A stretch of 64,000 nucleotides of DNA from Candidatus Marinacidobacterales bacterium (lineage in GTDB: Bacteria > Acidobacteriota > Vicinamibacteria > Marinacidobacterales > SMYC01), in the NCBI GenBank assembly GCA_965237955.1, contig OZ250169.1:2880001-2944000 (forward strand). Direction: 5' to 3'. Position 1 is the first letter of the stretch. The number at the start of each line of letters is the position of its first letter. The position numbers and the translations under genes are program-made. This document shows positions 6,782 through 39,504 of this stretch, piece after piece. The notes below the pieces were generated by a model. That model had not been told where the DNA came from. It searched no databases and saw only the letters and a list, made by a program, of their open reading frames with translations.

Positions 6782-6993
6782 GAGAAAAGGCCTCGAATCT
6801 CCTGAGAATTCGATATAAAGCCTTTTGAACTGAAACGGAAAGTGTGCCACTCTTGGTTGGAAATTGGAGGAAGGTCGCAGGAAAAATCGTGAGCCGTGGA
6901 GAGTTTCAACTAAGCATCGTACGCGCAGGGCTCGCGATCTATCTGGGTAGAAACTCCAGTGCTGCATGGAGCGTCCGTTTCATACAATAGCGG

Positions 6994-7150
6994 GAGCATC
7001 CGGGAACCGAGGCCGACTCAACACTGGTGCGATCCAGCCCGTAACTAAGCATGGCCCGGGGATGTTTCGGCACTGTCAGTGGTGACACGCGTGAGCGTGA
7101 TCCCGTTTAGGAGAATGTAACGAATGCCCATCCCTGTTCCCGGATGCTTC
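6994..7150 (+). ncRNA. Putative IS110 bridge RNA
   Basis: TACAAT -10 at 6983-6988; 13-bp closing stem 6995-7007/7136-7148; contains target-junction and donor-junction matches. Confidence 0.65.
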
Positions 7151-7157
7151 ACGAAGT

Positions 7158-8561
7158 ATGAAGGAGCATCTGATGAAGCACAATCGTCGTCAACCCAAGA
7201 AGCGGACTTCTCCATCCCTGCTGAAGCAAATCAACGTGAATGTCGCTGGGATCGATTGCGGCTCGGCCGAGCATTTCGTCGCAGTTCCACCGGAGCGCGA
7301 TCCTAAACCGATCCGTTCCTTCAGGAGTTTCACGGCCGATCTTCATCGGCTCGCCGACTGGCTCGCGACTTGCGGCGTGACGAGCATCGCGATGGAGTCG
7401 ACCGGCGTCTACTGGATCGCACTGTATGAAATCCTCGAAGCCCGTGGCTTCCAGGTCCTCTTGGTCAACGCGCGCCACGTCAAAAACGTCCCGGGGCGCA
7501 AGAGCGATGTCAGCGATTGCGAATGGCTCCGGGAGTTGCACAGCGTGGGGTTGCTCCGCGGAAGCTTTCGACCCGAAGCAGCCATCACCGCCCTTCGTGG
7601 CTACCTCCGCCACCGAGAGACTCTCGTTCAGAGTGCGGTAACCCATATCCAGCGCATGCAGAAGGCTCTCGTGCAAATGAATCTTCAACTCCACCTTGTG
7701 GTCACTGATATCACGGGTGTCACTGGCATGCGGATTCTACGAGACATCGTTGCCGGACAAACCGACCCCCATCGGCTCGCTAAGCACCGTGACCACCGTT
7801 GTCAGTCCTCCGAGGCCGAGATCGCCGCTGCACTCACCGGCAACTATCGCCCCGAGCACCTCTTCGCTCTCAAGCAGAACCTCGAACTCTTTGATGCTTT
7901 TCAGCTCCAGATCCAAACCTGTGACGTGGCCATCGAATCGCACCTGCAGCTTCTAGCTCAACGCTCAACCCCGAACACCTCCTTGCCACCGCCTCGAAAA
8001 TCGCGCAAGCCCCGAGTGAACGAACCTCGGTTCGAGCTCCGGCCTCTCCTCCACCAGATCGCCGGGGTCGACCTCTCCCAGATCGACGCCATCGGACCCT
8101 ATTCCGCGCTTCGCTTGCTCGCCGAGATCGGTACCGATATGAACCGATGGCCTACTGAAAAGCACTTCACTTCCTGGCTTACCCTCGCGCCCAATAACAA
8201 AATCTCCGGCGGGCGACTCCTCAGCTCGAAAACACAACCCTCTGCAAACCGCGCCGCTGGCATTCTCCGCATGGCCGCACTCAGCCTCGGGCGTACACAG
8301 ACCGCTCTCGGCGCCTACTATCGACGTCTCGCCTATCGCGTCGGTAAATCCAAAGCCATCACCGCCACCGCTCGAAAGCTCGCCATTCTCGTCTACCGCA
8401 CTCTCAAGGATGGGCTCGTCTATCAAGACCCCGGGGCCGCCGCCTACAACGCTCAAGATCGCTCCCGTGCCGTGCGCCGCCTGACCCAACGCGCCGCTGA
8501 CCTCGGTTTCGCTCTCATCGACACTCAAACGGGCGACGTCGTTCAGGCGGTAGTTTCTTAG
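7158..8561 (+). CDS. IS110-family DEDD recombinase/transposase
   Basis: AGIDCGS, AMESTGVYW, RKSDVSDC (DEDD); C-terminal Tnp20-like LAP.NKISGG. Confidence 0.92.
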   Translation: MKEHLMKHNRRQPKKRTSPSLLKQINVNVAGIDCGSAEHFVAVPPERDPKPIRSFRSFTADLHRLADWLATCGVTSIAMESTGVYWIALYEILEARGFQVLLVNARHVKNVPGRKSDVSDCEWLRELHSVGLLRGSFRPEAAITALRGYLRHRETLVQSAVTHIQRMQKALVQMNLQLHLVVTDITGVTGMRILRDIVAGQTDPHRLAKHRDHRCQSSEAEIAAALTGNYRPEHLFALKQNLELFDAFQLQIQTCDVAIESHLQLLAQRSTPNTSLPPPRKSRKPRVNEPRFELRPLLHQIAGVDLSQIDAIGPYSALRLLAEIGTDMNRWPTEKHFTSWLTLAPNNKISGGRLLSSKTQPSANRAAGILRMAALSLGRTQTALGAYYRRLAYRVGKSKAITATARKLAILVYRTLKDGLVYQDPGAAAYNAQDRSRAVRRLTQRAADLGFALIDTQTGDVVQAVVS

Positions 8562-8605
8562 GAGAAAGGGCGTGACTCCTGAAACGTTCAACCGGAAGGT
8601 CGCGA

Positions 8606-10153
8606 TTGAAGTTCCATTATAAGACTCTTATTACATTAGCGGTCGTGGCATTTGCAGTTTCCTCTTTGTCCCTCGCCCAGACCTTCGAAGAGCGCGGGGC
8701 CGAGATTCTGGGAGACATTGGCAACGAGTTCGCGCGAAGCGGATCGTTCGCCGATTATGACAATGATGGCGACCCCGATCTTTTCATTCAGGGCAGCGTC
8801 CAGGCACAGCGACTGTTGCGAAACAACACCATCGGTTCGGGCAGTGCCACCTTCACCGACGTCACTGTCGAAGTTGGGCTCGACAACTTGGACCAGCAAG
8901 GATGGAGCTCCGCCTGGGGGGACTACGATGGCGACGGGGACGTCGACCTTTTCCTCGGCCAGGAGCATTCCGGCAATGGAGACACCCGTGGCGATCTGTT
9001 CAGAAACCTCCGTATGGAGGGCGGGACCGGTTTCACGAATTTTAGCGCACCGACCGGACTCGACGACGCTGACTGGACTGACAACCTCGCTTGGGTCGAT
9101 ATCGATCAGGACGGGGACCTGGATCTCCTGGTCCTCAAGGAACTCGCGCCGCATGAGCTCTACGAGCAATTCGCGCCGGGGCAGTTCCGTCCGATCGGCG
9201 AGCAGACCGGTTTCGCCGATCCAACCTCCCATGGTTACGGTTTGGCCATCGGCGATTATGACGGAGACCGGGACCTCGATATCTATATCTCAACCTGCCT
9301 GATTGGGAACCGTATTCCGAATACCTTCTTCGAAAACCAGCTCAGCGATACGGGCGTTCTTCAGTTTCTTGACGTCACCGACCGCACGGGCACACAGTTC
9401 CTTCCGAATAGTTACGGTACGCAGTTCGCTGATTTCGACGACGACGGCGATTTGGATCTTTACTTGATAGGGGCCCAAGGGAATCCAAACGCAATCTGGC
9501 GGAATGAGGGAGACGGAACGTTCGCCGAAGTTCTCGGCATTGGGGGAGACGTAGTTCTCTACCAACCGTCCACGACGTTATCAGTCGGCGGGCAAGCGGC
9601 GGACTACGACAATGATGGCGATCTCGACCTGCTCTTTCAGGATCAAGCGGGTCCCGTTGGACGATGGCTCTTCCGGAACGATGGCGACTGGCTGTTTACT
9701 CCCGTATCGACCCAGGAGGGCCTTCGGACGCAAGCCGACGGCGGCTTCGACAGCACCTTTGTGGACTACGACCTCGACGGAGATCTCGACTTGTTTGCCT
9801 CAACGGACGCGGGCGTGCCTCAGCGATTCTTTGTCAGTAACGCCTCGACGAACGGAAACCAGTGGTTGTATGTTCGCCTCAAAGGCACCGAAAAGAACCC
9901 CACCGGTATCGGAGCTCAAGTCTACGCGACTATTTCACAAGGCACGCCCCAGGAGCGAACCCTCAGGCGCGATACCTTTCTGATGGTGGGCACGTTTCAT
10001 CATGACGACCTGCCGGTTCACATTGGTTTGGGAGCGGCCCAGGTAGTGGATGAGCTTCGAATTGTCTGGCCTAACGGCGTGACTCAGGTGCTCACGAACG
10101 TTTCGGCCGGTCAGTATCTGGAAGTAACGATTCCTAGTGCTGGAACCGGCTGA
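8606..10153 (+). CDS. Secreted FG-GAP repeat / ASPIC-UnbV (CRTAC1-like) protein
   Basis: Repeated DYDNDGDxDL; C-terminal GIGAQV..VHIGLG..RIVWPNG. Confidence 0.85.
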   Translation: MKFHYKTLITLAVVAFAVSSLSLAQTFEERGAEILGDIGNEFARSGSFADYDNDGDPDLFIQGSVQAQRLLRNNTIGSGSATFTDVTVEVGLDNLDQQGWSSAWGDYDGDGDVDLFLGQEHSGNGDTRGDLFRNLRMEGGTGFTNFSAPTGLDDADWTDNLAWVDIDQDGDLDLLVLKELAPHELYEQFAPGQFRPIGEQTGFADPTSHGYGLAIGDYDGDRDLDIYISTCLIGNRIPNTFFENQLSDTGVLQFLDVTDRTGTQFLPNSYGTQFADFDDDGDLDLYLIGAQGNPNAIWRNEGDGTFAEVLGIGGDVVLYQPSTTLSVGGQAADYDNDGDLDLLFQDQAGPVGRWLFRNDGDWLFTPVSTQEGLRTQADGGFDSTFVDYDLDGDLDLFASTDAGVPQRFFVSNASTNGNQWLYVRLKGTEKNPTGIGAQVYATISQGTPQERTLRRDTFLMVGTFHHDDLPVHIGLGAAQVVDELRIVWPNGVTQVLTNVSAGQYLEVTIPSAGTG

Positions 10154-10289
10154 TCCTGTCGGCAAAGGCCGAGGTGGATCGTCTACGAGACGCGAAAGGC
10201 GCCAAGCGGATCTTCGAATCGACGAAAGCGTCTCGAGGGCGATCGTTCCCCGCTAGCGCGATCCGTTCTCCGTAACCGTTTCCGTGGAC

Positions 10290-10445
10290 GTCTGCTCGTA
10301 TTCGATCCGGAAGGAAGGCGGATCGCCTCCAGGTCCGTTCAAGTAATGCTCCATCCAGCGGAGCGTCCTCAAGCTGCGGTCGAGCCGTGAAGCGGCACGG
10401 TTGTTTGCGTGTCCTTCGCCTCGGTAGAAAACGAGCCCAACCGGC
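10290..10445 (-). pseudogene. S9 peptidase C-terminal remnant
   Basis: Homologous to 32900-33075 (YRGEGH motif). Confidence 0.6.
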
Positions 10446-10564
10446 TGTGCCTCGTCAATAACCGTCCACGTTTGAAATCAGAGACTTACGCACCGCTGTC
10501 ACCCCGCCGGAGGAGGGGATCTCCGACTTGAGATTACGGGGCGGAAGAGCCACACTCCGCCGCT

Positions 10565-10795
10565 ATGCTCCATGTTCTCGTATTCCTCGTCTCTCTCGGC
10601 GCCCGTGCGATCCGGGCGATGTGTCGGCGGCGAGCCGACCTCGTGATTGAAAACCTGGCTCTGCGGCAGCAGGTGACGGCGCTCAAACAGGAGCGACCCC
10701 GGCCACCGCTCGATGACACGGACCGAGCATTCTGGGTCGCGCTGCGGAGCTCGTGGCCGGCATGGGCGAGCCGCTTGGTGATCGTCAACGCAGTA
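10565..10795 (+). pseudogene. N-terminal fragment of an ENLALRQQ-type rve integrase
   Basis: LVIENLALRQQV...DRAFWV motif; TGT-ended terminus with IHF-like site at 10446. Confidence 0.7.
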
Positions 10796-10953
10796 CGCCA
10801 ACAACCGCAGCCCGCGCTTTTTTCAGGATCACTACGAGGAAGTCGAAGAGCGTGCCGGAGGCTGGCACCAGTTGGTTGGCAACTTCGTTACTTATACGCC
10901 CGCAGAGCCGGGCACCGGACAGTTCGCCGGAAGCGCGTTTCTCGGGACGGACG

Positions 10954-11358
10954 ATGACTCAATCCCCAGCTTGGCTGGAGTCGCTTGTCGACAACGTGGT
11001 CAACTGCATGGAAACAAGTGCTCCAGGCTCCGTGGGCTATCGATGGCTGAACGAGGATGATGAGTATTGGGAGGTTTTTGTCTTTTGGACTCCCGTCAAG
11101 TTGGTCGGGGGCGGTGTCGAGAGTGAGATTGTGTATCCGTTATTTTCGCTAGACTTGCAAGGGTTGAGCTCCTGTTTCGAGAAGGTGGAGGACTTCCGCT
11201 GGCAAGCACATGCGTTCAGCCCGCACGATCCTGAAGGCCCTAACGTCTGCATCGAGGGCATGCATCGAGGGCATCGCGTTTGCCTCCGAGTCCTCAGCGA
11301 ACCGCCGGAGGACGAAGAGCCCGGACTGGAGCTTGAAACACCATCCAAGGTGGAGTAG
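10954..11358 (+). CDS. Hypothetical protein
   Basis: Clean 134-aa ORF with protein-like composition. Confidence 0.6.
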   Translation: MTQSPAWLESLVDNVVNCMETSAPGSVGYRWLNEDDEYWEVFVFWTPVKLVGGGVESEIVYPLFSLDLQGLSSCFEKVEDFRWQAHAFSPHDPEGPNVCIEGMHRGHRVCLRVLSEPPEDEEPGLELETPSKVE

Positions 11359-11643
11359 ACACTCTCGGCAACGCCCGTGGCGGGCTTCGGCCAACGTGCG
11401 GCGACCAAGGCCCCTGTAGAACTCGCGAAGACGTCTGGTCGGCGAGCTCTCCGAGAAACTGAAACGCCGACTCACCCCTTGAGTACGAAAGGGTCTGCTC
11501 GGCTCATTACAAAGCCGAGGTTCCGCCTGGCCAAGGACAAAGGCGCCGCATCGTCGCGAAGCGTCTAATGTCGAGGATTGACGTTTGTGGTTAACCCGCA
11601 ACCCCTAACTTTGCCCACATGTCACCCCACGGGAGGTTTTCGA

Positions 11644-11757
11644 GGCGTTGTTGCATAAATATTGGTAAGTCGTTGATTCTATTGACTCTGTAATTTTGGC
11701 CCCAAAAACGTAACTTGCTGATTCCTTTAGGTTTGTCGGGAATTATGCAACAACGCC
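11644..11757. mobile_element. IS903-type MITE
   Basis: IRs GGCGTTGTTGCATA / TATGCAACAACGCC around an AT-rich core. Confidence 0.75.
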
Positions 11758-12105
11758 GCGCGAAGGTCCAAGCCAGCCACTTGCTATGAAGCCGAAACCT
11801 CAACGGCGGAGGTTTCGAGAACGGCGTGTAAGTCTATGAGTTCAAGGGCGGACGCGTTTTGATGAACCACAGGCCTGTTGGTCACGCTGGATCCAACCAG
11901 CGACGGCGACGACCAAAAATGTCAAGGGTTGGATCGGCGTGCTCATGACGGAGGATTCTAGCTTCCCTTGGCGAACCAAGCGTAGACCCTACCGACTTTG
12001 GTCAAGAGAGTGTGCCAATCTTAGTTGGACATTGAAACGGCTCCAAACCCCGTGGTTTGATGACGTTGGCAAAACAACATCAAGCCACAAGAGAAAGGAG
12101 CCAAG

Positions 12106-13401
12106 ATGGGAAGTCTGCTACGTACCGCCAAGAAACACAAGAAGTCACGTCGTTTGGGTGAGGTCGAGGTCGTGAAGAGAGAGGAGTACGGGGAGCTTGA
12201 GCTGGATGCCAAGGTCGAGATGATCCGTGCGTTGGTCCCCCTTGGTCTAATGCGCGTTCACGAGTTGCTCGACGACGAGGTGAAGGCGTTGGCGGGAGAG
12301 CGATACGCTCGCAAGGACGAGCCGGAGCGTGGTCGCCGCCACGGAACCAACCCTGGCACGGTGGGACTAGCAGGGCAGCGGGTACCGATCCGTGTGCCAC
12401 GGGTTCGGAGCATCGAGGGAGGAGAGATACCGCTTCGTTCCTACGAGGCGCTGAGCGCGGGTGGAGAGGTGAATGATCTTTTGCTGAGACGAGTGCTGTA
12501 CGGAATCTCGTGTCGCAACTACGAGGCGGCAGCGGAGGCGATTCCGGGTGCCATCGGGCTGTCGAGTTCGACGGTGTCTCGAGGTTTCGTGCAAGCGAGC
12601 GCGTCGAAGCTCCGGGAGATGCAAGAACGAGATCTATCCGGTGAAGATGTGGTCGCGATGTTCCTGGACGGGAAGACGTTCGCCGAGGCAATGATGGTCG
12701 TAGCGCTGGGCATCACGGTTTCCGGGGAAAAACGCTTCTTGGGCTTCGTGGAAACGGACACGGAGAACGCGCAGGTGTTGACGCCGTTCCTGCGTTGCTT
12801 GCTCGAGCGGGGACTCGATATCTCCCAGGGTCTACTGGTGGTCATCGACGGCGCCAAGGGCCTCCAGGCGGCCGTAAAGAAGGCATTCCGTAAGCGGGCC
12901 CTAATACAACGGTGCCAGTGGCATAAACGTGAAAATGTCGTGAGCTACCTGTCCAAGGGCGAGCAGGCGTCGTTGCGCAAGCGGCTGCAGCGGGCCTACG
13001 ACAGGCCAGAATACAAAGAGGCCCTCGCTGCACTCAACCAACTCCACGGTGAGTTGGAAGAGCGGAACCAATCCGCAGCTGGCAGCCTGGAGGAAGGGCT
13101 CGAGGCGACACTGACGCTGCATCGACTGGGCGTGTACGGCATGCTGGGCCGTTCCTTCAAGACAACGAACTGCCTTGAATCCGTCAATGCTCTCGTTGAG
13201 GAACGCTGCGCGAAGGTCGACCACTGGAAGAACTCCAGCCAACGCCAGCGGTGGCTAGCGACGGCGCTCGTGGATATTGAACCGCGCTTGCGGAAGGTGG
13301 TGGGGTACCGCCATCTTCCCAAGCTTCGCGAAGCTCTCAAACGGGAACTGAAGATCGAGACGAAGACATCAACGCTATCGACGACGAAGAAGGTCGCGTA
13401 A
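12106..13401 (+). CDS. IS256-family (Mutator-like) transposase
   Basis: FLDGK, VIDGAKGL, QRCQWHK, TTNCLESVN motifs. Confidence 0.9.
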   Translation: MGSLLRTAKKHKKSRRLGEVEVVKREEYGELELDAKVEMIRALVPLGLMRVHELLDDEVKALAGERYARKDEPERGRRHGTNPGTVGLAGQRVPIRVPRVRSIEGGEIPLRSYEALSAGGEVNDLLLRRVLYGISCRNYEAAAEAIPGAIGLSSSTVSRGFVQASASKLREMQERDLSGEDVVAMFLDGKTFAEAMMVVALGITVSGEKRFLGFVETDTENAQVLTPFLRCLLERGLDISQGLLVVIDGAKGLQAAVKKAFRKRALIQRCQWHKRENVVSYLSKGEQASLRKRLQRAYDRPEYKEALAALNQLHGELEERNQSAAGSLEEGLEATLTLHRLGVYGMLGRSFKTTNCLESVNALVEERCAKVDHWKNSSQRQRWLATALVDIEPRLRKVVGYRHLPKLREALKRELKIETKTSTLSTTKKVA

Positions 13402-13508
13402 TCGTGAGCCGTGGAGAGTTTCAACTAAGCATCGTACGCGCAGGGCTCGCGATCTATCTGGGTAGAAACTCCAGTGCTGCATGGAGCGTCCGTTTCATAC
13501 AATAGCGG

Positions 13509-13665
13509 GAGCATCCGGGAACCGAGGCCGACTCAACACTGGTGCGATCCAGCCCGTAACTAAGCATGGCCCGGGGATGTTTCGGCACTGTCAGTGGTGA
13601 CACGCGTGAGCGTGATCCCGTTTAGGAGAATGTAACGAATGCCCATCCCTGTTCCCGGATGCTTC
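13509..13665 (+). ncRNA. Putative IS110 bridge RNA, copy 2
   Basis: Identical to 6994-7150. Confidence 0.65.
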
Positions 13666-13672
13666 ACGAAGT

Positions 13673-15076
13673 ATGAAGGAGCATCTGATGAAGCACAATC
13701 GTCGTCAACCCAAGAAGCGGACTTCTCCATCCCTGCTGAAGCAAATCAACGTGAATGTCGCTGGGATCGATTGCGGCTCGGCCGAGCATTTCGTCGCAGT
13801 TCCACCGGAGCGCGATCCTAAACCGATCCGTTCCTTCAGGAGTTTCACGGCCGATCTTCATCGGCTCGCCGACTGGCTCGCGACTTGCGGCGTGACGAGC
13901 ATCGCGATGGAGTCGACCGGCGTCTACTGGATCGCACTGTATGAAATCCTCGAAGCCCGTGGCTTCCAGGTCCTCTTGGTCAACGCGCGCCACGTCAAAA
14001 ACGTCCCGGGGCGCAAGAGCGATGTCAGCGATTGCGAATGGCTCCGGGAGTTGCACAGCGTGGGGTTGCTCCGCGGAAGCTTTCGACCCGAAGCAGCCAT
14101 CACCGCCCTTCGTGGCTACCTCCGCCACCGAGAGACTCTCGTTCAGAGTGCGGTAACCCATATCCAGCGCATGCAGAAGGCTCTCGTGCAAATGAATCTT
14201 CAACTCCACCTTGTGGTCACTGATATCACGGGTGTCACTGGCATGCGGATTCTACGAGACATCGTTGCCGGACAAACCGACCCCCATCGGCTCGCTAAGC
14301 ACCGTGACCACCGTTGTCAGTCCTCCGAGGCCGAGATCGCCGCTGCACTCACCGGCAACTATCGCCCCGAGCACCTCTTCGCTCTCAAGCAGAACCTCGA
14401 ACTCTTTGATGCTTTTCAGCTCCAGATCCAAACCTGTGACGTGGCCATCGAATCGCACCTGCAGCTTCTAGCTCAACGCTCAACCCCGAACACCTCCTTG
14501 CCACCGCCTCGAAAATCGCGCAAGCCCCGAGTGAACGAACCTCGGTTCGAGCTCCGGCCTCTCCTCCACCAGATCGCCGGGGTCGACCTCTCCCAGATCG
14601 ACGCCATCGGACCCTATTCCGCGCTTCGCTTGCTCGCCGAGATCGGTACCGATATGAACCGATGGCCTACTGAAAAGCACTTCACTTCCTGGCTTACCCT
14701 CGCGCCCAATAACAAAATCTCCGGCGGGCGACTCCTCAGCTCGAAAACACAACCCTCTGCAAACCGGGCCGCTGGCATTCTCCGCATGGCCGCACTCAGC
14801 CTCGGGCGTACACAGACCGCTCTCGGCGCCTACTATCGACGTCTCGCCTATCGCGTCGGTAAATCCAAAGCCATCACCGCCACCGCTCGAAAGCTCGCCA
14901 TTCTCGTCTACCGCACTCTCAAGGATGGGCTCGTCTATCAAGACCCCGGGGCCGCCGCCTACAACGCTCAAGATCGCTCCCGTGCCGTGCGCCGCCTGAC
15001 CCAACGCGCCGCTGACCTCGGTTTCGCTCTCATCGACACTCAAACGGGCGACGTCGTTCAGGCGGTAGTTTCTTAG
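13673..15076 (+). CDS. IS110-family recombinase/transposase
   Basis: Same protein as 7158-8561. Confidence 0.92.
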   Translation: MKEHLMKHNRRQPKKRTSPSLLKQINVNVAGIDCGSAEHFVAVPPERDPKPIRSFRSFTADLHRLADWLATCGVTSIAMESTGVYWIALYEILEARGFQVLLVNARHVKNVPGRKSDVSDCEWLRELHSVGLLRGSFRPEAAITALRGYLRHRETLVQSAVTHIQRMQKALVQMNLQLHLVVTDITGVTGMRILRDIVAGQTDPHRLAKHRDHRCQSSEAEIAAALTGNYRPEHLFALKQNLELFDAFQLQIQTCDVAIESHLQLLAQRSTPNTSLPPPRKSRKPRVNEPRFELRPLLHQIAGVDLSQIDAIGPYSALRLLAEIGTDMNRWPTEKHFTSWLTLAPNNKISGGRLLSSKTQPSANRAAGILRMAALSLGRTQTALGAYYRRLAYRVGKSKAITATARKLAILVYRTLKDGLVYQDPGAAAYNAQDRSRAVRRLTQRAADLGFALIDTQTGDVVQAVVS

Positions 15077-15335
15077 GAGGAGAATGGGCTTGACTCTTGG
15101 TCAATATCCAATCCCTTGAAACTTCCGATCCATGCTTCCGAACGACGGATTCGTCAGTCGCTAGTCCCTCCAAGCTTTTCTCAGATAGACGGTTATCTGA
15201 TCGAGGGTTCCGGCCTTACTGTCCGATCGGTGAAAATGAGATCCAAACTTTTGAACACGAAGAATATCGAGCAGGAGTCGGCCCGCTAATCTACTCATTT
15301 CTAGAGACTTACGCATTATCTTTCGGTGCTAGCTG

Positions 15336-15351
15336 TGGAATAGAACTTGCA
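15336..15351 (+). promoter_or_regulatory. Putative sigma-54 promoter (-24/-12)
   Basis: TGGAATAGAACTTGCA has GG-N10-GC spacing, upstream of the TonB receptor gene. Confidence 0.45.
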
Positions 15352-15516
15352 TAATCATTTAGGCAGGAGGCTCTGTGCTCTCCAAAGTCATATCTACTTT
15401 CTTGCAGGTGTCGACGTAGGCTATCGCCTGTTCTGACATCTTCTGTTGCAAAGCCTCCTTTTGTAGGGATCGTGCTTCGCCGGGTTTCGGTGGGGTATTA
15501 AGAGGGAGGCAAACTG

Positions 15517-18495: not shown

Positions 18496-18556
18496 TAAGT
18501 GTTGGCGTTGGAGGCACGGAAAGCGTAACCATCTAGCTCACTGAAGAGCGGCAGAG

Positions 18557-18592
18557 AAACCGGGGTGTCAGGAGAGGCACCCCGGTTTTTTT
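18557..18592 (+). terminator. Rho-independent terminator
   Basis: AAACCGGGGTG...CACCCCGGTTT hairpin followed by a T-tract. Confidence 0.8.
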
Positions 18593-19512: not shown

Positions 19513-19770
19513 AGCCTTTTGAACTGAAACGGAAAGAGTGCCACTCTTGGTTGGAAATTGGAGGAAGGTCGCAGGAAAAATCGTGCGCCGTGGAGAGTTC
19601 CTAGTGCTGGAACCCTCTGATCCTGTCGGCAAAGGCCGAGGTGGATCGTCTACGAGACGCGCAAGGCGCCAAGCGGATCTTCGAATCGACGAAAGCGTCT
19701 CGAGGGCGATCGTTCCCTGCTAGCGCGATCCGTTCTCCGTAACCGTTTCCGTGGACGTCTGCTCGAACTC
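19477..19770 (+). repeat. Deleted copy of the 6782-10300 locus
   Basis: 6782-6905 sequence joined directly to 10133-10300 sequence. Confidence 0.85.
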
Positions 19771-19989
19771 GACCGCGTCGTGTCCAAAAACTGAAACGGC
19801 CTGAATGGCAGCTCGAACACCTGTCTGCGAGACGGCTGAGCCGCGGCTGGAACCGTTGCCCTTGTGCAGATCGGAGCCGAGCAAACTTGCCGCGATGGAG
19901 GCGCCAAGCGTTACGCGGCCTCACGGTAATAGTATTTGAGTAGTCCACCCAAGCGCTGGCGACACCGGACGGGGCCTTGACGCTCTCCG

Positions 19990-28931: not shown

Positions 28932-28992
28932 TTCCTAGATCGTCCTCCTTCCGGGTACGACCTAGAGTTGCCTTGAAACGTGCTATCGATGA

Positions 28993-29151
28993 GCGTTCGC
29001 GATGCCGGAACCGGCGTTCACGTTGCCTGGAATCCGTGTTCACCTTCCCCGGAATCGATGTTCACGATCCCCGGAATCCGTGTTCACGATGCTTTGGAAT
29101 GGATGTTCACCTTCGGCTGGAATCTGCGTTCACGATGCCCCGGAATACGCA
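28993..29151. repeat. About 7 tandem 21-23-bp IS21 end repeats
   Basis: GTGTTCACGATNCCNGGAATC-like units. Confidence 0.85.
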
Positions 29152-29758
29152 CCTGGTTCGGGCCCTGGTGAATTTGATGCGCCGGGCGGACTGGTGGTGG
29201 CGCCGAACGGCGATCTCTACGTCGCCGACTTCTACAACCATCGGGTCCAGCAACTGCGAGCCGACGGTAGCTTCGTGGCCATCCTGGGAACCTCGGGACG
29301 GGCTCGGAGCGGAGCACTGCACTACCCAACGGATATGGCGATCCTACCGGACGGCGGGGTGGTGGCTGCCGATGCTTATAACAACCGTATCCAGATCTTC
29401 GGGCCCGACGGGAGCTTCCGGACGAAGTGGGGCGGACCTCTCGGACTCGGGCTTCCCGGTGGATGGGGCGGGTGGTTCCGCGTCGCCACCGGGGTGGGTG
29501 TTGACTCGGAGGGTCGCATCTACACCGCCGACTTTTACAACCACCGGATCCAGGTCTTCTCGGCGGCGGGCGAGTTTCTCGGGGAGTTCGGCGAGCCGGG
29601 CAGTGGGCCCGGCCAGCTCCAGCATCCGACGGATGTCGCGATCGCTGCAGACGGCTCCATCTATGTCGTGGACTTCGGAAACGATCGCATACAGGTTTTC
29701 CGACAGGAGGGGTGATAGCCCTTGCTGGCCACGACGTGTGCCGGACCAGGAGATTGAG

Positions 29759-30088
29759 ATGGCGACGATTCAGACGCTGACGAACTCAGAAGTCGAATCG
29801 AGGGTGCTGGAGGCGCCGGTGCCGGTGGCGCTGGATTTCTATCAGACCACTTGCCCGCCGTGCCGCGCGCTGGAGCCTCGGTTGCGAGGCGTCGCCGAGC
29901 GATACACTCGCCGGCTCGAGGTGTACCGGGTGGATATCGACCGTGACCTGGAGGTGGCAGAACGCTTCGGCGTCCAAAGCCTGCCGACCGTGCTTGTCTT
30001 CCGTGGCGGGAAAGAGGTTGATCGGCTCGACGGGTTGATTACGAACGACGATCTCGAAGCAGCCTTCGATCGAGCGAGCCGCATTTGA
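29759..30088 (+). CDS. Thioredoxin family protein
   Basis: LDFY...CPPC; FGVQSLPTV. Confidence 0.85.
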   Translation: MATIQTLTNSEVESRVLEAPVPVALDFYQTTCPPCRALEPRLRGVAERYTRRLEVYRVDIDRDLEVAERFGVQSLPTVLVFRGGKEVDRLDGLITNDDLEAAFDRASRI

Positions 30089-30184
30089 ATCGTCGGGTCG
30101 ATTGGCCAAACGGTCGAGCGGAATCGAGTTACAAGGGACAGGGATGACCTATGGAAAGGGATCGCAAAAAAGGAGCTTAGCGAT

Positions 30185-30421
30185 ATGACAGGCAGAGTCG
30201 AGTTCACCATATCCGGCGACCAGAAGATCCACTGCGCGGGGTGCGAGCAGCGGATCGAGCGGGCGTTCTGGAATGTACCTGGTGTGCAACAGGTTCGAGC
30301 GGATGCCGACACCCAACAAGTCGTGGCCACAATCGACAGGAAACAAGTCGCGCCGGAACAAGTGCGGGGCAAGCTGGCCGACCTGGGCTACCAGGCGAAT
30401 GTCTCAGGGGGGACGGAATGA
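30185..30421 (+). CDS. CopZ-like HMA metal chaperone
   Basis: IHCAGC motif, 78 aa. Confidence 0.8.
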   Translation: MTGRVEFTISGDQKIHCAGCEQRIERAFWNVPGVQQVRADADTQQVVATIDRKQVAPEQVRGKLADLGYQANVSGGTE

Positions 30422-30850
30422 GTGGGAATCGTGGAACGGAGTTCGCGCGGACGAACACTCCCGAGGCTTTCACCCGCGCGGATGGAACCGAGAAGCTCCA
30501 GTTCAAGATCGGCGGGCTGTCGTGTTCCTTCTGTGTGGCGAGCATTACGAAGGCGCTCGGACGGATGGATGGTGTTCGTGAGTTGACGGTGAATCTCGCG
30601 CACGAAGAGGCGCTCGTTGAGTACGAGCCTGCCAAAGTGTCCGCGGCTCAATTGAAACAGACGTTGGTGGACCTCGGCTATACGGTGCGCGACCCGAACA
30701 GAGTGCCCACCTTTGAGGAGGAGGAGGCCGAGCTCCGGCGCGAGCGGAATAAACTGCTTGTGGCAGCGGGTCTCGCCGCCTTCGCGCTGGTTGGCGCGAT
30801 GAGCACGTGGATGCGTGTGCCCATCGGCGGCCTTCCCTGGCTACGAGAAA
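30418..30850 (+). pseudogene. Heavy-metal P1B-ATPase N-terminal fragment
   Basis: GLSCSFC HMA domain and first TM helix, then an abrupt junction. Confidence 0.7.
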
Positions 30851-31143
30851 AAGGTCCATGCCGTCCGTCCTGGAGCATAGCAAAAGCCCAAGAGCGGCAG
30901 AAGCGACGTGTGGCTAATCCTTCAGGGAAGCAGAAGGTGAGTGCAGGCAGAATTCGGGCCGCTGGACACCGTATGGCGGCATTTTGCTGGGCGGAGGAGG
31001 GGTTTTCTTGGGCGATCACGTTGGCCAAAGGATTCGCGGGCTCCGGAGAGCATCTCGAGGGACCGCCGCGTCATCTGGTCTGCTCTCGAGTTGGGTTGAT
31101 GCTCTCCTGAGGGTTCAATTTAAAGCCCTTTTGAACTGAAACG

Positions 31144-31279
31144 GAAAGTGTTACTCTTGGTCGGAAATTGAAACGGCTCCAAACCCGTAGTTTGATGACG
31201 TTACAACATCAAGCTGCAGGAGAAAGGGGCCCAGATGAGAAGTGTGCTACGTTGGATCAAGTAAGAAAAGGCCTGACTC
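31144..31279 (+). mobile_element. IS256-derived MITE, not invaded by IS110
   Basis: Left part similar to 12006-12123; right end CAAGTAAGAAAAGGCCTGACTC. Confidence 0.7.
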
Positions 31280-31311
31280 CTGGGAGAGGTTCAACCGGAA
31301 GGCGGCGATCG

Positions 31312-32904
31312 ATGTTCCATCATAAGACTCTTATTACATTAGCGGTCGTGGCATTAGGAGCTCCCTCTTTGTCCCCCGCCCAGACCTTCGAAGAGCGCGC
31401 GGCCGAGATTCTGGGAAATATTGGAAACGAGAACGCGCGAAGCGGATCGTTCGCCGACTATGATAACGATGGCGACCCCGATCTTTTCATTCAGGGCACC
31501 GTCCAGGCACAGCGACTGTTGCGAAACAACACCATCGGTTCGGGCAGTGCCACCTTCACCGACGTCACTGTCGAAGTTGGGCTCGACAACTTGGACCAGT
31601 ATGGAAGGAGCTCCGCCTGGGCGGACTACGATGGTGACGGGGACGTCGACCTTTTCCTCGGCCGGGAGCATTCCGGCAATGGAGACACCCGTGGCGATCT
31701 GTTCAGAAACATGCTTATGGAGGGCGGGACCGGGTTCGTGAATTTTGGCGCACAGACCGGACTCGACGACCCTTACAACCATGAAAACATCGCTTGGGTC
31801 GATATCGATCAGGACGGGGACCTGGATCTCCTGGTCCTCATGTTCAGCCAGCCGCATGAGCTCTACGAGCAATTCGCGCCGGGGCAGTTCCGTCCGATCG
31901 GCGAGCAGACCGGTTTCGCCGATCCAACCTCCCATGGTTACGGTTTGGCCATCGGCGATTATGACGGAGACGGGGACGTCGATCTCTATCTCTCAACGTG
32001 CCTGATTGGGAACCGTGTTCCGAATACCTTCTTCGAAAACCAGCTCAGCGATACGGGCGTTCTTCGGTTTATTGACGTCACCGACCGCACGGACACACAG
32101 TTCTATCCGAGTACTTTCGGTACGCAGTTCGCTGATTTCGACGACGACGGCGATTTGGATCTTTACTTGATAGGGGCCCAAGGGAATCCAAACGGAATCT
32201 TTCGGAATGACGGAGACGGAACGTTCAAGGAACTTCACTTCGCAGAATTGCTTGATGAGAATATTGACGAACTTTCAGTTGAGAGTGTTGGCGCAGCACC
32301 TGACCCTTCAATTGCCTACCAATCGTCCATGACGTTATCAGCCGGCGCGCAAGCGGTGGACTACGACAATGATGGCGATCTCGACCTGTTCGCTCATGAT
32401 CAAACGGGTCCCATTGGACGAACGCTCTTCCGGTACGATGGCGACTTTCGGTTTACTCACGTATCGACCCAGGAGGGCCTTCGGACGGGGCCCGACCAGG
32501 GCTACGACAGCACCTTTGTGGACTACGACCTCGACGGCGATCTCGACTTGTTTGCCTCAACGGGCGCGGGCCTGCCTCAGCGATTCTTTGTCAGTTACGC
32601 CTCGACGAACGGAAACGGGTGGTTGTTTGTTCGCCTCAAAGGCACCAAAAACAACCCCTCCGGTATCGGAGCTCAAGTCTACGCAACGATTCATCAAGGC
32701 ACGCCCCAGGAGCGAACCCTCAGGCGCGATACCTTTCTAGCGATGATCGGCACGTTTCATCAGGACGACTTGCCGGTTCACATTGGTTTGGGAGCGGCCC
32801 AGGTAGTCGATGAGCTGCGAATTGTCTGGCCCAACGGCGTGACTCAGGTGCTCACGAACGTTTCGGCCGGTCAGTATTTGGAGGTAGCAATTCCTAGCTC
32901 CTGA
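31312..32904 (+). CDS. FG-GAP / ASPIC-UnbV protein, paralog of 8606-10153
   Basis: Long identical DNA blocks and the same motifs. Confidence 0.85.
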   Translation: MFHHKTLITLAVVALGAPSLSPAQTFEERAAEILGNIGNENARSGSFADYDNDGDPDLFIQGTVQAQRLLRNNTIGSGSATFTDVTVEVGLDNLDQYGRSSAWADYDGDGDVDLFLGREHSGNGDTRGDLFRNMLMEGGTGFVNFGAQTGLDDPYNHENIAWVDIDQDGDLDLLVLMFSQPHELYEQFAPGQFRPIGEQTGFADPTSHGYGLAIGDYDGDGDVDLYLSTCLIGNRVPNTFFENQLSDTGVLRFIDVTDRTDTQFYPSTFGTQFADFDDDGDLDLYLIGAQGNPNGIFRNDGDGTFKELHFAELLDENIDELSVESVGAAPDPSIAYQSSMTLSAGAQAVDYDNDGDLDLFAHDQTGPIGRTLFRYDGDFRFTHVSTQEGLRTGPDQGYDSTFVDYDLDGDLDLFASTGAGLPQRFFVSYASTNGNGWLFVRLKGTKNNPSGIGAQVYATIHQGTPQERTLRRDTFLAMIGTFHQDDLPVHIGLGAAQVVDELRIVWPNGVTQVLTNVSAGQYLEVAIPSS

Positions 32905-33400
32905 GCCGTTTCCGCGGACGTCCGCTCGTATTCGATACGAACGGAAGGTGGATCGCCTCCAGGTCCCTTCAAGTAGTGCTCCAACCAGCGGAGCGTCCTC
33001 GAGCTGCGGTCGAGCCGTGAAGCGGCTCGGTCGTATGCGTGTCCTTCGCCTCGGTAGAGAACGAGCCTAACCGGCACCTTCCCCTGGACCTTGAGGTGGC
33101 GATAGAGCTCCATGGCCTGGCTGGGGTGAACCCGCGGGTCCTCTGCGCCGTGCAAGATCAGGATCGGCGTGCGGGCCCGGTTCACGTAGTAAATGGGCGA
33201 GCGTTTCATGAAGTATTCCCAGTCGTCCCAAAGCCATTTGCGGTGGTGCACCATGAACATCTCGTAAGGAATGTCGGTGGTGCCGACCTTGGAGATGGCG
33301 TCGCTGATGCCGGCGGACATGACGGCGGCGGCGAAGCGATCACTGTAATAGGTGGCTCCCCACGCAGACGCGTAGCCTCCGTAGGAGCTGCCGGTGATGC
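32871..33400 (-). pseudogene. S9 prolyl-oligopeptidase C-terminal fragment
   Basis: GSSYGG, HGAEDPRV, GEGH triad motifs; cut by an element end at 33401. Confidence 0.85.
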
Positions 33401-33775
33401 CGTCCTGTGCCAAAACTCGGCCCTTTTGAAATAGGCCATAAATCAGCAGTTTAGTGTCTGTGTTTGCGACCGGGCCAAGGGCCGTGGGCTTTACAATCGT
33501 CTTGGGCGGGCGGGTCGTCACCATGCAGATGACCACCTCGTCGAGAGCGAATATCGAAGCGTGTTCCTGAAGCTGTTTCCACGCTACGCCGGTCGAGCCC
33601 GCCGAGGGGCTACCGTCGCCGGCGACCATCTACGCGGCACGGCAGTAGTAGTTTGAGAATGCCCCCAAGTCGCTCTCGCGACACGATGGGGCCAGCGTCA
33701 TTCGCGCTTGCCGGCAGAGGTGTGAGGAGACCTTGGTGGTTCCGTTCTCTGTGTGATAGTGCACTACGTATTCGT
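33401..33775 (-). mobile_element. rve-integrase element 3' end, degenerate
   Basis: Full TIR plus decayed integrase 3' sequence. Confidence 0.85.
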
Positions 33776-33935
33776 CATCGCCCCGTGGCGAGCCCGAGAT
33801 CTGGGGCGTGTCGGAGGCGATGTCGGCGATTTGGGTTCTCCGCACGCGCGGGGAAAACACCGTCCAGCAGCGGGATGCCACGCTCCCGGGCGGAGACCTG
33901 GATCCAAGCCCGGGCCGCACCTGGACCAGAACGTG

Positions 33936-34101
33936 CTAGTCCCCTGGAACAGAGGTTCGTGGCCTAAAGCTCGACGCCATTTTGTGGGCTGGCGAGGCGT
34001 GACGACGAAGTCATATTGGAATATTTCGAGGAGGAACAACGAAGCCAGCGCGCAAAAAGGGCCCGAGATTTAGGTTACGAACCTCTGTTCCAGGGGACTA
34101 G
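33936..34101. mobile_element. MITE at a CTAG site (IS630-like)
   Basis: 25-bp perfect IR CTAGTCCCCTGGAACAGAGGTTCGT; empty homologous site near 53390. Confidence 0.8.
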
Positions 34102-34593
34102 GCCGGCTACGCCGCGGTAACCTCAGCTTCGATTCTGAGCCCCTCGGGCGGCCTCTTTTCCGCTGCCCGCAAGGTCTTCGGTCAGAGCCCTGCGTACACA
34201 GGTTTCGGGAGAAGGCTGTTTTACGTGCTCTCGGGTTTCAACCTTGGTGCCCATTTCCTTCTATCCTCTTCCCCTACAGCGATTTAACGGCCTCCGTCAC
34301 GTGCTGGTCCCCGCACGCATCATCGACGGGTGATGAGAAGACGCTCAATGCCTAGATCGCGCCTGAGGAGAGGGCGAATAGCGGAATTCGAATTGGCCAA
34401 ACCTCGAATTCATCCAGCGGAGTTTTACGGAGGAAACGAAGATGACTCCGCAGACGGTCCAGTACAAGGAGCTATCCGAGTCTGGAAACCATGACAGGGA
34501 ATTTGGGCCAGTTTAAGTCTGATTGGTGGAGGCCAGTGTCGGAGAGCAGCTTGCTGCTAACCGAGGCCATTCACGAAGTGGGCGCTGGCAGGC

Positions 34594-36256
34594 TCACAGC
34601 GTTTTGACGAGCACTCGCTGTTTCTCCCAATCGTCGGGAAGCGGATGATGCAAGAGGTAGCTCGAGGTCAGCCCAACGGGCTGGCGGCCTTCGACAATGG
34701 CGCGGACGATGTCGGGAGCCAGGAAGGCATAACGGATTGCCTTGCGCACGCGGTCCGTTGGGATGGCGTTTTCGGTGGCAATCTCCTCATAGGTTTTGCC
34801 TGCTTTGATTCGGTCGAGCCAGGAGAGGGCGTTTCTGATATTGCGCAGGAGTGTGCGGTCGACGGATTTCGTGGGGTTGCCCAGAACGAGCTTGGTCTCG
34901 ACGCCGCGTCGACGCAAGCGGAACGGCGCGTGGATGCGGAGCGTATCCTCGCGAATGCGGTCGGGCTCCATAGACAGGCAAGCAGCGAACGCATTGCGGT
35001 CGAGGAGGATAGACACAGAGCCTGGGCTGATGTCGACCCGCCGGATAAGACGGAGCAGGGGGGCTGCCGAGGCACTATCATTGTTACTACCGGAACACAG
35101 CCCGTCTAAAAAGCGACGCACCGAGGCGAGCTCTTGCATCGTCGGAGTGTGGATCAACGAGGCCGAGAAGGTCGTGACATCCACATTGCTGTCGGATGAG
35201 ATGCACGACGGTCTGTTCCAGCATCGGGGCGGGCAGTCGCCAGCCGGAGAGGTCCTTTTGGCCACTGTGCTGGATGAGGCGCCGGGAGACGTAGTAGCGG
35301 AGCCGTTGCCCGTTTTTCTTTTTGGTGTGGCTCGGCGTCAGCCGGTCCCCGGTCTCGTCGAAGAGCTTGCCGGCCAGTGGGGAAGGGGCTGCACGGCCCT
35401 TCGTCGTGCGTCTCCTTGGTTTGGCAGCCCCTGCCTGCAGCTGCGTTTGGACCGCGTCCCAGAGCTCCGGAGCAATGATCGATGGATGCTGGCCCTCGTA
35501 GACACACCTCTGGTGCCGGATGCGGCCGGCGTAGAGAGGATTGGTCAGCAGGCAGTGGAGGTGTCCGCGACGGAACGGCAGCCCGCCCGTTCGGGTTCCA
35601 TCCGCGGTGAAGCGTTGCTTGGTACGCAGTCTCAGACGGTCCGCCTCGGCCTTCACCTGCCGGAGCGTTCCGTGCTTTCGGTACAGCGCATAGAGCGTCC
35701 GGACCGTTTCGGCCTCAGCCTCGTTGATGCGCAGCGTGCGCCCGTCCTTCTCATAGCCTAGCGGTACGCGGCCGCCCATCCATAGTCCCTTGCGCTTGGA
35801 GGCAGCGACCTTATCGCGGATCCGCTCGGCCGTGACCTCGCGTTCGAATTGTGCGAAGGACAGCAGCATATGCAGCGTCAGTCGTCCCATGCTGGTCGCG
35901 GTGTTGAAGGACTGAGTCACCGAGACGAAAACCGCGCCGGCCGCCTCGAGCCGCTCGACGAGCTTTGCAAAGTCGGAGAGGGAACGGGTCAGCCGGTCGA
36001 CCTTGTAGACCACAATCTGGTCGACGAGACCTGCGTCGATGTCGGCGAGCAAGCGCTGCAGGCCCGGGCGCTCCAGGGTTCCTCCCGAGAGCCCCGCGTC
36101 CTCGTAGACAGTTGGCAGCAGCACCCAGCCCTCCGCTTTCTGGCTCGCGACATACGCGGCGCAGGCTTCTCGCTGCGCATCGAGGGAGTTGAACTCCTGT
36201 TCGAGACCCTCTTCCGCACTCTTTCGCGTATAGATGGCACAGCGGATCTTCTTCAT
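34594..36256 (-). pseudogene. Large serine recombinase, +1 frameshift near 35186
   Basis: CAIYTRKS, DRLTRS, GGRVPLGY, NPLYAG; CACATTG here versus CACATG in the second copy. Confidence 0.85.
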
Positions 36257-36257
36257 G

Positions 36258-36689
36258 TTAGGCCTTGCGCTTGGGCGTCAGACCGAAAAAGCGTGGTCCT
36301 GACCAGTGGGTGCCGGTGATTCGCTTTGCGATGGTAGTGAGGGACGGATAGGTTTTGCCATCGAACCGATAGCCGTTGTCGATTACCTCGACCTGGTAGG
36401 TCCGGCCATTCCACTCGCGGACGAGATGGGTGCCGGCAGAAACGGACCCTGCGGGAGCGTCGGAGCTTGGTGTCTCGTTCGCCATGGCAGCCAGAGCGCG
36501 CCGGGTTGCGGCCGAAAGCCCGCCATGGGTCCGGCACTGGCGTTCGTGCAAGAGAACGCGGCGCAGGAAAACACGCGAGAGCGAGCTTGGAGGAGCAGCC
36601 CCAAAGGTCTGCTCCCAGACCCGCCGTAAGCTGGCGAAGTCCAAACCGTCCAAAACGACGTTCCGGCCAACCCCTGTATCCTGCGGCAT
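36258..36689 (-). CDS. DUF2924-family protein
   Basis: GTHLVREWNG..Y.SLTTIAKRITGTHWSGPRFFGL. Confidence 0.85.
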   Translation of the reverse strand: MPQDTGVGRNVVLDGLDFASLRRVWEQTFGAAPPSSLSRVFLRRVLLHERQCRTHGGLSAATRRALAAMANETPSSDAPAGSVSAGTHLVREWNGRTYQVEVIDNGYRFDGKTYPSLTTIAKRITGTHWSGPRFFGLTPKRKA

Positions 36690-37119
36690 CACCGAACGTT
36701 CGCTCTTGTGCTCGATAAAGTCCAGTCTAATGAGGGACTTCCGGGTGCGAAGTTCACTGGCCGTAGCTCGCCCCGCAGCCGATTTGAGCCAGCCGTGCGC
36801 ACCCCCGGTGGGCCTGTCGCTCGCCACCCGCAGCTCTGGGGTCGGAAGCCAGCCCTGCGGCGCGAAATACCCTCGATTTTGCGCGGATTCCAAGGGCGTC
36901 TAAGCTGCTGATTTGTGGTCTATTTCAAAAGAGCCGAGTTTTGGCACAGGACGCGGAAGCACCCGCAGCGGTGGCGGCAATCGACGGGCTGATCGAACAT
37001 GCCTCGTGACATAAACGTGTCTTCCGGTACATTTCCATGCCATCTGACACCGGGGTGCAGAGCGCTGTGGAGGGCGCAAAGATTGGTTTGAACGAAACGA
37101 GTGGAGGCTCTCGCCGGTC

Positions 37120-37647
37120 TTACTTGCTCAAGGCCGGCACTCCGAGCCTCTTCAATCGCGCCGCGACATCCGCTCCCGCGCTGTGCGTGTTGACGCTTCT
37201 GTCGATGTAGAGGATCTTGCCTTCGGCGTCGACATAGTAAGTCCAGCGGTGCGGCAATTCACGCTTCGCCGTTACGACCCCATAGGACTTCGCGACGCCT
37301 TTGTCGGGATCGCTCAGGATCGGATAGTCGAGCGAGAGAGATTCGGCGAATTCCTTGTTAGTCTTGACCGTGTCACAGCTCGCGGCGAAGTAGTTGACCG
37401 CAAAAGCACGGATTTCGTCGCCGCTCTCACGGAGCGACTTGCATTCGGCCGTTCAACCACCGGTAAACGCTTTCGGAAACCACGCAAGGACCACAGCCTT
37501 GCCCCTTAGCTCGGAGAGCCGGTAGGACTTTCCGTCGGTGCCTTGGAGCTCGAAGTCGGGTGCCTCGTCGCCAACCTGTAGTTCGGCAGCACCCAGGGAG
37601 CCTCCGATAAACATCACACCAAGAGCCCAGCCAGCGATTCGCTTCAT
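37120..37647 (-). CDS. Peroxiredoxin (AhpC/BCP-like), probable selenoprotein
   Basis: [15 protein letters not shown]; frame stays open for another 110 codons of Prx-like sequence. Confidence 0.85.
37421..37452 (-). promoter_or_regulatory. Putative bacterial SECIS hairpin
   Basis: CGCTC-CGTGA-GAGCG stem-loop about 16 nt after the in-frame TGA. Confidence 0.55.
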
Positions 37648-38065
37648 TGACAACACTCCCACTCCAATATAAGCACCTATAACTCGTAGCACCAATTGGA
37701 ACTTAGCAATTCGCTTCAATGACAACACTCCCATTCCAATCGTCACAACCCAAAGCGGAAGTCTAGACCCGGCCAGCGGGCATGGCAACCGACGGCGGAG
37801 TTCCTGTTGGTTCAGTAGCTCAGGCATTGTGGACGTCGAAGCTCCCGCCTTCGAACCGAGGCGCCCGCGGGCGAAGAGCCCGGCTGGCCGAGCGAGCCGA
37901 GGAGGCGAGCGAAGGATAAATAATGCCCGTGAGGTCAAAATACTCATGCTGCTTCCCGATGGTAGAAACGTAGCAACCCGCCAAGCCGTTCACGGGAGCG
38001 CACCATAGACACTAAGCTGCTGATTTATGGTCTATTTCAAAAGGGCCGAGTTTTGGCACAGGACG

Positions 38066-39082
38066 GGGTTGCTCCGCGGAAGCTTTCGACCCGAAGCAGC
38101 CATCACCGCCCTTCGTGGCTACCTCCGCCACCGAGAGACTCTCGTTCAGAGTGCGGTAACCCATATCCAGCGCATGCAGAAGGCTCTCGTGCAAATGAAT
38201 CTTCAACTCCACCTTGTGGTCACTGATATCACGGGTGTCACTGGCATGCGGATTCTACGAGACATCGTTGCCGGACAAACCGACCCCCATCGGCTCGCCA
38301 AGCACCGTGACCACCGTTGTCAGTCCTCCGAGGCCGAGATCGCCGCTGCACTCACCGGCAACTATCGCCCCGAGCACCTCTTCGCTCTCAAGCAGAACCT
38401 CGAACTCTTTGATGCTTTTCAGCTCCAGATCCAAACCTGTGACGTGGCCATCGAATCGCACCTGCAGCTTCTAGCTCAACGCTCAACCCCGAACACCTCC
38501 TTGCCACCGCCTCGAAAATCGCGCAAGCCCCGAGTGAACGAACCTCGGTTCGAGCTCTGGCCTCTCCTCCACCAGATCGCCGGGGTCGACCTCTCCCAGA
38601 TCGACGCCATCGGACCCTATTCCGCGCTTCGCTTGCTCGCCGAGATCGGTACCGATATGAACCGATGGCCTACTGAAAAGCACTTCACTTCCTGGCTTAC
38701 CCTCGCGCCCAATAACAAAATCTCCGGCGGGCGACTCCTCAGCTCGAAAACACAACCCTCTGCAAACCGCGCCGCTGGCATTCTCCGCATGGCCGCACTC
38801 AGCCTCGGGCGTACACAGACCGCTCTCGGCGCCTACTATCGACGTCTCGCCTATCGCGTCGGTAAATCCAAAGCCATCACCGCCACCGCTCGAAAGCTCG
38901 CCATTCTCGTCTACCGCACTCTCAAGGATGGGCTCGTCTATCAAGACCCCGGGGCCGCCGCCTACAACGCTCAAGATCGCTCCCGTGCCGTGCGCCGCCT
39001 GACCCAACGCGCCGCTGACCTCGGTTTCGCTCTCATCGACACTCAAACGGGCGACGTCGTTCAGGCGGTAGTTTCTTAGGAG
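38066..39082 (+). mobile_element. IS110 copy 3, 5'-truncated by a CGTCC end
   Basis: Matches the 3' part of copy 1; right flank AATGGGCTTGACTC is the IS256 IRR half. Confidence 0.9.
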
Positions 39083-39504
39083 AATGGGCTTGACTCCTGC
39101 GCTGGTACCTGTGCCTTCTATTTATTCATCCGCGCGCACCGAACTTGATTAGTCTCCGGTCTGGCGTTCTCGACCCGGCGTCCGAACTCTTCGGGAAACC
39201 GTCTCTCCAGACTCGAATGGACACCCACAAACACGAGCTCCGGAGCTGCGACCGAATAGATCCTGCGCCAAAAGCGCCAAAACCCGTCTGGTCAAAATAC
39301 GCGAAGGCCCAGCGGGTCAGCAGTTTGCACCTACGACCTGCCCAGCATCCTTTGACTACGCCATAAATTCTGGCTAAAGTACTCTACTTGTACTGACTTA
39401 GTTGACCGGCAAGCCATCGTCAGGTGTCAGGGGGACCGCCTGCCCGACTGGCTGAGCTGAATGCCCAAAAAGCTTTGACCTGGACTGAAAAGGAGCGCAA
39501 GAGC

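Follow-up and report, generated by a model that had tools for sequence, protein, structure and literature searches.

We analysed a window of 64,000 nucleotides from a Candidatus Marinacidobacterales bacterium (contig OZ250169.1, positions 2,880,001 to 2,944,000), in which copies of an IS110-family insertion sequence (IS) lie within IS256-family elements. We consider it probable that this ISPpu9-like IS110, which sits at CAACTA-AG in all its intact copies, is steered there by a guide RNA that we predict within its left end, and that both end repeats of one IS256 subfamily are its main, though not its only, landing sites. This reading is built on the boundaries of the element, its duplicated AG core, the target word, an excess of IS256 ends among its sites and the covariation of guide and target across relatives.

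Both complete copies in the window are preceded by CAACTA, flanked by AG on each side and followed by the last 14 bp of the right inverted repeat (IRR) of IS256, with AAAGGGCGTGACTC directly after the right AG core of copy 1 (8563-8564); copy 2 differs from copy 1 by one single nucleotide polymorphism (SNP). These boundaries, and the 8-bp target duplications of both IS256 hosts, agree with a preliminary description of this DNA, with the correction that copy 2 has three extra bases at 15080-15082. The same extra bases occur in another genome (G013, locus L078), and locus L094 is the identical site without them. As that description had also proposed, removing the IS110 restores the IRR: the restored repeat occurs empty in this genome, and five related genomes that we tested contain it, as exact matches, 37, 27, 72, 25 and 51 times, while contigs of two of four sequencing runs (X3 and X8, from two studies) join 6912 to 8563 with one AG, that is, the empty allele of copy 1. 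Two sites outside inverted repeats (IRs) likewise have empty paralogues.

A BLAST search of the genome with the IS110 gave 27 hits, 19 of them near-identical pieces. All 11 intact left junctions follow CAACTAAG, and the 17 right junctions reduce to 14 distinct sites: eight in an IS256 IRR, one in a left inverted repeat (IRL) and five at unrelated loci, which share with the IR sites only CAACTAAG. This word occurs 49 times in the genome and is occupied at 6 of 12 IR sites compared to 5 of 37 others (Fisher p = 0.016), or, counting three left-truncated IRR events too, at 9 of 15 compared to 5 of 37 (p = 0.0014); the p-values are approximate, since we labelled the IR sites by eye, in three cases from no more than a short IR remnant, and the sites are not fully independent. 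Targeting of IS256 ends is preferential, not exclusive, and specificity resides mainly in a word of 7-8 nt; the excess of IS256 ends is real, though partial. The original claim that the element targets the right IR hence holds as a preference for IS256 ends but not for the right IR only, given that one genomic site and that of a relative (L138) are in left IRs. The same description had set the flanks of all genomic copies as a test, in which insertions at unrelated sequences would count against it, and finding 5 of 14 such sites goes partly that way.

The IS110 recombinase has the DEDD RuvC-like and C-terminal serine domains of the family (PF01548, E = 8e-23; PF02371, E = 8e-12; NF033542, 253 bits for a cut-off of 140), and the recombination across a short core, the scarless empty site and the lack of terminal IRs are equally those of IS110 elements. 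A single bp separates its stop codon from the right core, and the non-coding left end spans ~250 bp, in which we predict target and donor guides, as in other family members. In a set of 76 related loci from genome contigs plus loci from further searches, a conserved GCCCG is followed by 8 nt that match the left target of the respective relative. Among 34 distinct guides, 28, 32, 32, 31 and 34 matched at positions −5 to −1 (shuffle means of 10-16), with a small bias from picking the junction by best match among at most three candidates. In the present IS110 this left guide spells the IS256-end word, presumably with a U-G wobble at its first base. For the right guide, an unbiased scan gave the strongest right-flank signals (z = 5.6 and 3.7) on the 5′ side of the left guide, and 113 of 210 positions matched over 42 distinct guides, compared to 76.8 ± 5.7 when shuffled, a value reached in 0 of 5000 shuffles; the relatives are not independent, and the covariation tests for both guides therefore overstate significance. 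A first candidate for the right guide (6 nt 3′ of the left guide) was rejected, as no position covaried.

The two target guides face each other within a predicted stem, which is paired in 46-48 of 48 rows at each of five positions, one of them with compensatory changes; in a weak test on 12 rows, 98% were paired, and 16-17 of 500 shuffles scored as high by four measures and 144 of 500 by a fifth. In all 44 rows showing both, the right end agrees with the predicted left donor guide (by eye, three variants allowed). One row of the covariation and stem sets (L095) and locus L161 are from an unpublished genome (G027), and no conclusion depends on either. The guide-target covariation supports, at the sequence level, the earlier proposal of an RNA-guided IS110. 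The left end, folded by itself, showed nothing unusual (z = −1.46), an Rfam search gave no match and a PDB sequence search no relative. We also observed that the element's first 3 nt recur at 7050-7052, after the left target guide, and the initial 4 nt of the IRR right flank at 7114-7117, after the left donor guide; the predicted RNA thus mirrors both post-insertion junctions, with weak covariation (z = 5.5 and 4.1) that could reflect relatedness.

In the mechanism we propose, by analogy with the family, the IS110 would be excised as a circle joined at AG, the guide RNA would be expressed and its left-end guides would steer recombination into CAACTA-AG; because specificity would lie mostly in the 7-8-nt left guide, other CAACTAAG sites would be used as well. 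End-to-end junctions are present in two relatives (L003 and L066), and the circle joint was not found in contigs of the four sequencing runs, a result that cannot show its absence.

Several observations weigh against a specific relationship with IS256. Six IR sites with CAACTAAG remain empty; besides the five unrelated sites of 14 in the genome, at least two sites elsewhere (L105/L122/L136 and L140) are not IS256 ends; and three distant IS110s (46-50% aa identity; L108, L109 and L135) with the same left guide have left flanks other than IS256. Moreover, the right guide predicts TTGAG, to which the IRR scores 2/5 in register, and occupied sites do not differ from empty ones in right-guide score (p = 0.54); a better fit at a one-base offset was discarded as post hoc, 10% of random 5-mers equalling it. 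The overlap with IS256 could then be coincidental, a generic 8-mer being read that IS256 ends contain, with the excess owed to the local surroundings (a flank rich in A/T or resembling the donor's AGTTT) and no selection for IS256. The mismatched right guide and the use of non-IR sites here and in relatives fit such a coincidence, as do the better match of occupied than of empty IR sites to the donor's AGTTT flank (mean 4.5 versus 3.0, p = 0.013, post hoc) and the presence of an unrelated ISAzo13-type element at the same IRR base in G013. We nonetheless find it less likely: the AGTTT effect is not significant at non-IR sites (p = 0.13); two other repeated element ends with CAACTAAG (5 and 4 genomic copies, the former the 64-nt end of an integrase-core element) are never occupied; the word is found in each IR of an element that reaches 15-76 copies in 7 of the 54 other genomes from the order; and in other samples close relatives are in IS256 ends at three independent sites (L113, IRR, 85% aa identity; L138, IRL, 92%; L083, IRR, a fragment, 74%), a count that leaves out L078, L081 and L094, which are the same loci as in this genome.

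An IS256 of 78% identity, a left-IR remnant and the window remnant all harbour identical IS110 copies; the single SNP of copy 2 is shared with a non-IR copy, and a further haplotype is present at one IR site and at one outside IRs. Such identity in diverged hosts, with mixed haplotypes, cannot be explained by one insertion followed by duplication, and supports the earlier view of different host sites and independent insertions. That all IR copies descend from a single insertion spread by duplication or gene conversion is accordingly most improbable, being largely refuted by the IRL and diverged-host sites and at odds with the different target duplications, interspersed haplotypes and empty allele of copy 1. 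It does hold for copy 3, whose flank is common to two further fragments in the genome: judged by that flank, the three are duplicates of one insertion event; copy 3 keeps the right flank, as first described.

The host has the Mutator-type DDE transposase, terminal IRs and 8-bp target duplication of the IS256 family; the duplications are exact in the window and in 9 of 13 uninterrupted related IS256 copies with both ends in view. The left IR of the full element (12006-15096) also carries an empty CAACTAAG, on the minus strand. The 91-bp remnant with copy 1 has three paralogues (at 19530 and 31140 in the window and ~107.8 kb in the genome), and all four copies have one left flank, which indicates an internally deleted IS256 copied with its surroundings and not a mobile family of MITEs (miniature inverted-repeat transposable elements); dispersal at different sites, expected of MITEs, was not seen, and the suggestion that MITEs serve as landing pads, resting on this one deletion remnant, is not upheld. 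Paralogous FG-GAP/ASPIC genes at 8606-10153 and 31168-32904 are each preceded by a differently deleted remnant of one IS256 insertion.

What insertion does to IS256 can be approached from the anatomy of the end. The IS110 core is at bp 15-16 from the IS256 tip and splits the end, leaving 16 bp outside the IS110. According to the accessible part of a study of the IS256-family ISCth4, its transposase binds bp 1-12 and 14-25, and ends shorter than 25 bp integrate poorly (PMC7780238). Insertion would thus separate the tip from the subterminal transposase site and, by analogy with ISCth4, likely weakens the host end; precise excision of the IS110 would restore it. Against this, the right end of the IS110 restores bp 22-27 of the IRR, so that within its first 27 bp the hybrid end differs only at bp 17-21 and may keep some activity. 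If so, an IS256::IS110 composite might still be mobile and inflate the IR count by hitch-hiking, and two IS110 copies of a defective haplotype (C1:3067229 and 3143644) do have IRR tips and different flanks. We deem this unlikely, considering that host IR sequences differ while IS110 copies are identical, that no identical full composite is at two sites in this genome, and that ISCth4, in the same part of that study (PMC7780238), requires bp 14-25.

The sole full-length copy of this IS256 in the genome carries the IS110, and there is no intact free copy; its IRR has 8 matches here, compared to 15-76 in each of seven genomes among 54 others from the order. Among 301 genomes, an intact IS110 junction was present only in this one (G000) and G019 and in none of the seven rich in IS256; right-end IS110 relics were in three of five related genomes tested, and most other genomes had few or no copies of either element. 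The IS256 copy numbers fit suppression by IS110, a correlation from one genome, and it is from this and the end anatomy that we infer an effect of the kind previously proposed, that the IS110 immobilises IS256. More tentatively still, the ISPpu9-like branch might represent a third guide-RNA layout (left-end RNA, IS1111-type order, dominated by the left guide), of which one lineage has been reprogrammed to a word that both ends of an IS256 subfamily contain, and keeps that IS256 suppressed in its host.

The search for relatives yielded further observations. Over 1.5-2.6 kb around two IS110 sites, this genome is 99.5-99.9% identical to L078 and L094 (G013) and L081 (G018), from other genera, which reflects either recent transfer or binning overlap. 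A metagenome search with the guide pattern gave 43 hits, 11 in IS110-like RNA regions and the rest chance-like, and a phylum-wide search no further member of the close clade. The left flank of L135 reads by eye like the start of a phage-integrase gene. In 16 of 45 related IS110 loci (L002-L074) the left target ends in GTTAG, with CTAAC upstream in 6 of these 16 compared to 2 of the other 29, a pattern that we take to resemble integron attC sites. A 56%-identical relative (L202:400-800; L095) has an AA core and a left guide with a run of A, and in L202 its insertion site is presumably the A-run of an IS3 frameshift, which suggests another retargeting to a mobile element. An ISAzo13-type element (PF07592; ~30 copies, e.g. 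G000:C1:3178810-3182301) inserts at CTAAG/CTTAG, with a preference for CTWAG; one copy interrupts an IS110 copy within its left guide, and the ISAzo13-type element is, in G013, at the same IS256 IRR base at least once (L167; six pattern matches; L193 is also in G013). The 64-nt end of the integrase-core element recurs in both orientations (465-528, 36900-36963, 38012-38075 and five more) and truncates IS110 copy 3. At 43355-44014, a 15-nt tandem array lies within a pentapeptide-repeat open reading frame (ORF). The AGAAACT of the IS110 left end was seen by eye in many relatives. Coordinates of the features are listed below.

Features of the IS110 element, its predicted guide RNA and its IS256 hosts (window positions)
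Feature	Position	Strand	Remarks
IS110 copy 1	body 6915..8562	+	1648 bp between AG cores 6913-6914 and 8563-8564
Left target CAACTA and AG core, copy 1	6907..6914	+	
Conserved AGAAACT, left end	6949..6955	+	Inverse of AGTTTCT at 8552-8558; short, asymmetric subterminal pair
Predicted target-binding loop	7011..7056	+	Outer stem 7011-7015 pairs with 7052-7056
Predicted right target guide, 5′ of left guide	7017..7021	+	Pairs with top strand; covariation
Predicted left target guide and core, TAACTAAG	7042..7049	+	Pairs with bottom strand; covariation
Predicted left donor guide and core	7106..7113	+	Matches the element's own right end; sequence
IS110 recombinase, 462 aa, DEDD and serine domains	7173..8561	+	ORF can start at 7158
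IS110 copy 2	body 13430..15077	+	AG cores 13428-13429 and 15078-15079
Three extra bases between core and IRR tip, copy 2	15080..15082	+	
IS110 copy 3, 5′-truncated, with AG and 14-bp IRR tip	38065..39096	+	Body 38065-39080, tip 39083-39096
Full IS256-family element, IS110 copy 2 in right IR	12006..15096	+	1438 bp when empty
8-bp target duplication of full IS256	11998..12005	+	Right copy 15097-15104
IS256 transposase, 431 aa, open frame	12106..13401	+	PF00872, NF033543
Internally deleted IS256 remnant, IS110 copy 1 in right IR	6838..8578	+	91 bp when empty
8-bp target duplication of IS256 remnant	6830..6837	+	Right copy 8579-8586
Paralogous IS256 remnant, same left flank	19532..19599	+	Ends just before IS110 target
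Second paralogous remnant, different internal deletion, same flanks	31144..31280	+	Target word mutated, without IS110

That IS110 elements target the ends of other elements was already known. IS4321 and IS5075, of the IS1111 group, reportedly insert into the terminal IRs of Tn21-family elements, and IS1383 is said to have the IRs of IS1384 as its specific target; both cases resemble the present one in that an IS110-family element enters the IRs of another mobile element, but with a different host, and the IS4321/IS5075 transposase (334 aa) is only weakly similar to that described here (29% over 155 aa). What our analysis adds is a map of the predicted guides, the reversal of their order and a figure for the partial preference shown towards the two IS256 ends: a natural case of an RNA-guided element parasitising the ends of another transposon, with predicted guide bases mapped and both empty and filled alleles. 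In the literature within the scope of our searches, which took in neither ISFinder nor subscription papers, we found no paper in which an IS110 targets IS256 IRs, and neither the main text nor the readable supplements of PMC11208160 and PMC11187229 mention IS256.

ISEc21 also targets another IS family, at the catalytic codons of IS3, in the accessible text of PMC11208160; like IS621, it has a left-end guide RNA, shown experimentally for both and predicted here, but its transposase is 23% identical to the present one, and IS621 differs in its CT core and low mismatch tolerance. In the parts of the two reports available to us, the bottom-strand guide comes first in IS621 and ISEc21, and the top-strand guide in IS1111 elements (PMC11208160, PMC11187229), which usually have a downstream non-coding region and subterminal IRs of 11-13 bp (PMC11187229). 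The present element has the long left end and short right end of the IS110 group, but its predicted bottom-strand guide is not 5′ of the top-strand guide (7017-7021 precedes 7042-7049); nor does it conform to IS1111, its non-coding region being upstream and its only IR a 7-bp pair with the left copy 34 bp inside, instead of 11-13-bp repeats 7 and 3 bp from the ends. The clade profile scored 52.5 bits with IS4321 and 39.6 bits with ISEc21, a comparison by profile and not by tree. An upstream RNA with IS1111 guide order is hence predicted for this clade, a layout that may already be drawn in published figures; if confirmed, it would qualify the published rule that IS110 and IS1111 elements can be told apart by guide order.

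Among characterised elements, ISPpu9 of Pseudomonas putida KT2440 appears to be the closest relative; it is assigned to the IS110 group by its authors and forms circles joined at AG (PMC12288879, as far as its text was accessible). The likeness extends to the long transposase and shared motifs (by eye, against the supplement of PMC11187229) and, from the same accessible text, to the AG core on both sides, the upstream non-coding region and the inverted repeat just inside the left end (PMC12288879). The programmable positions mapped here for the ISPpu9 branch are relevant to the engineering of bridge recombinases. The two elements part in their targets, which for ISPpu9 are described there as REP/BIME repeats and not IS ends (PMC12288879).

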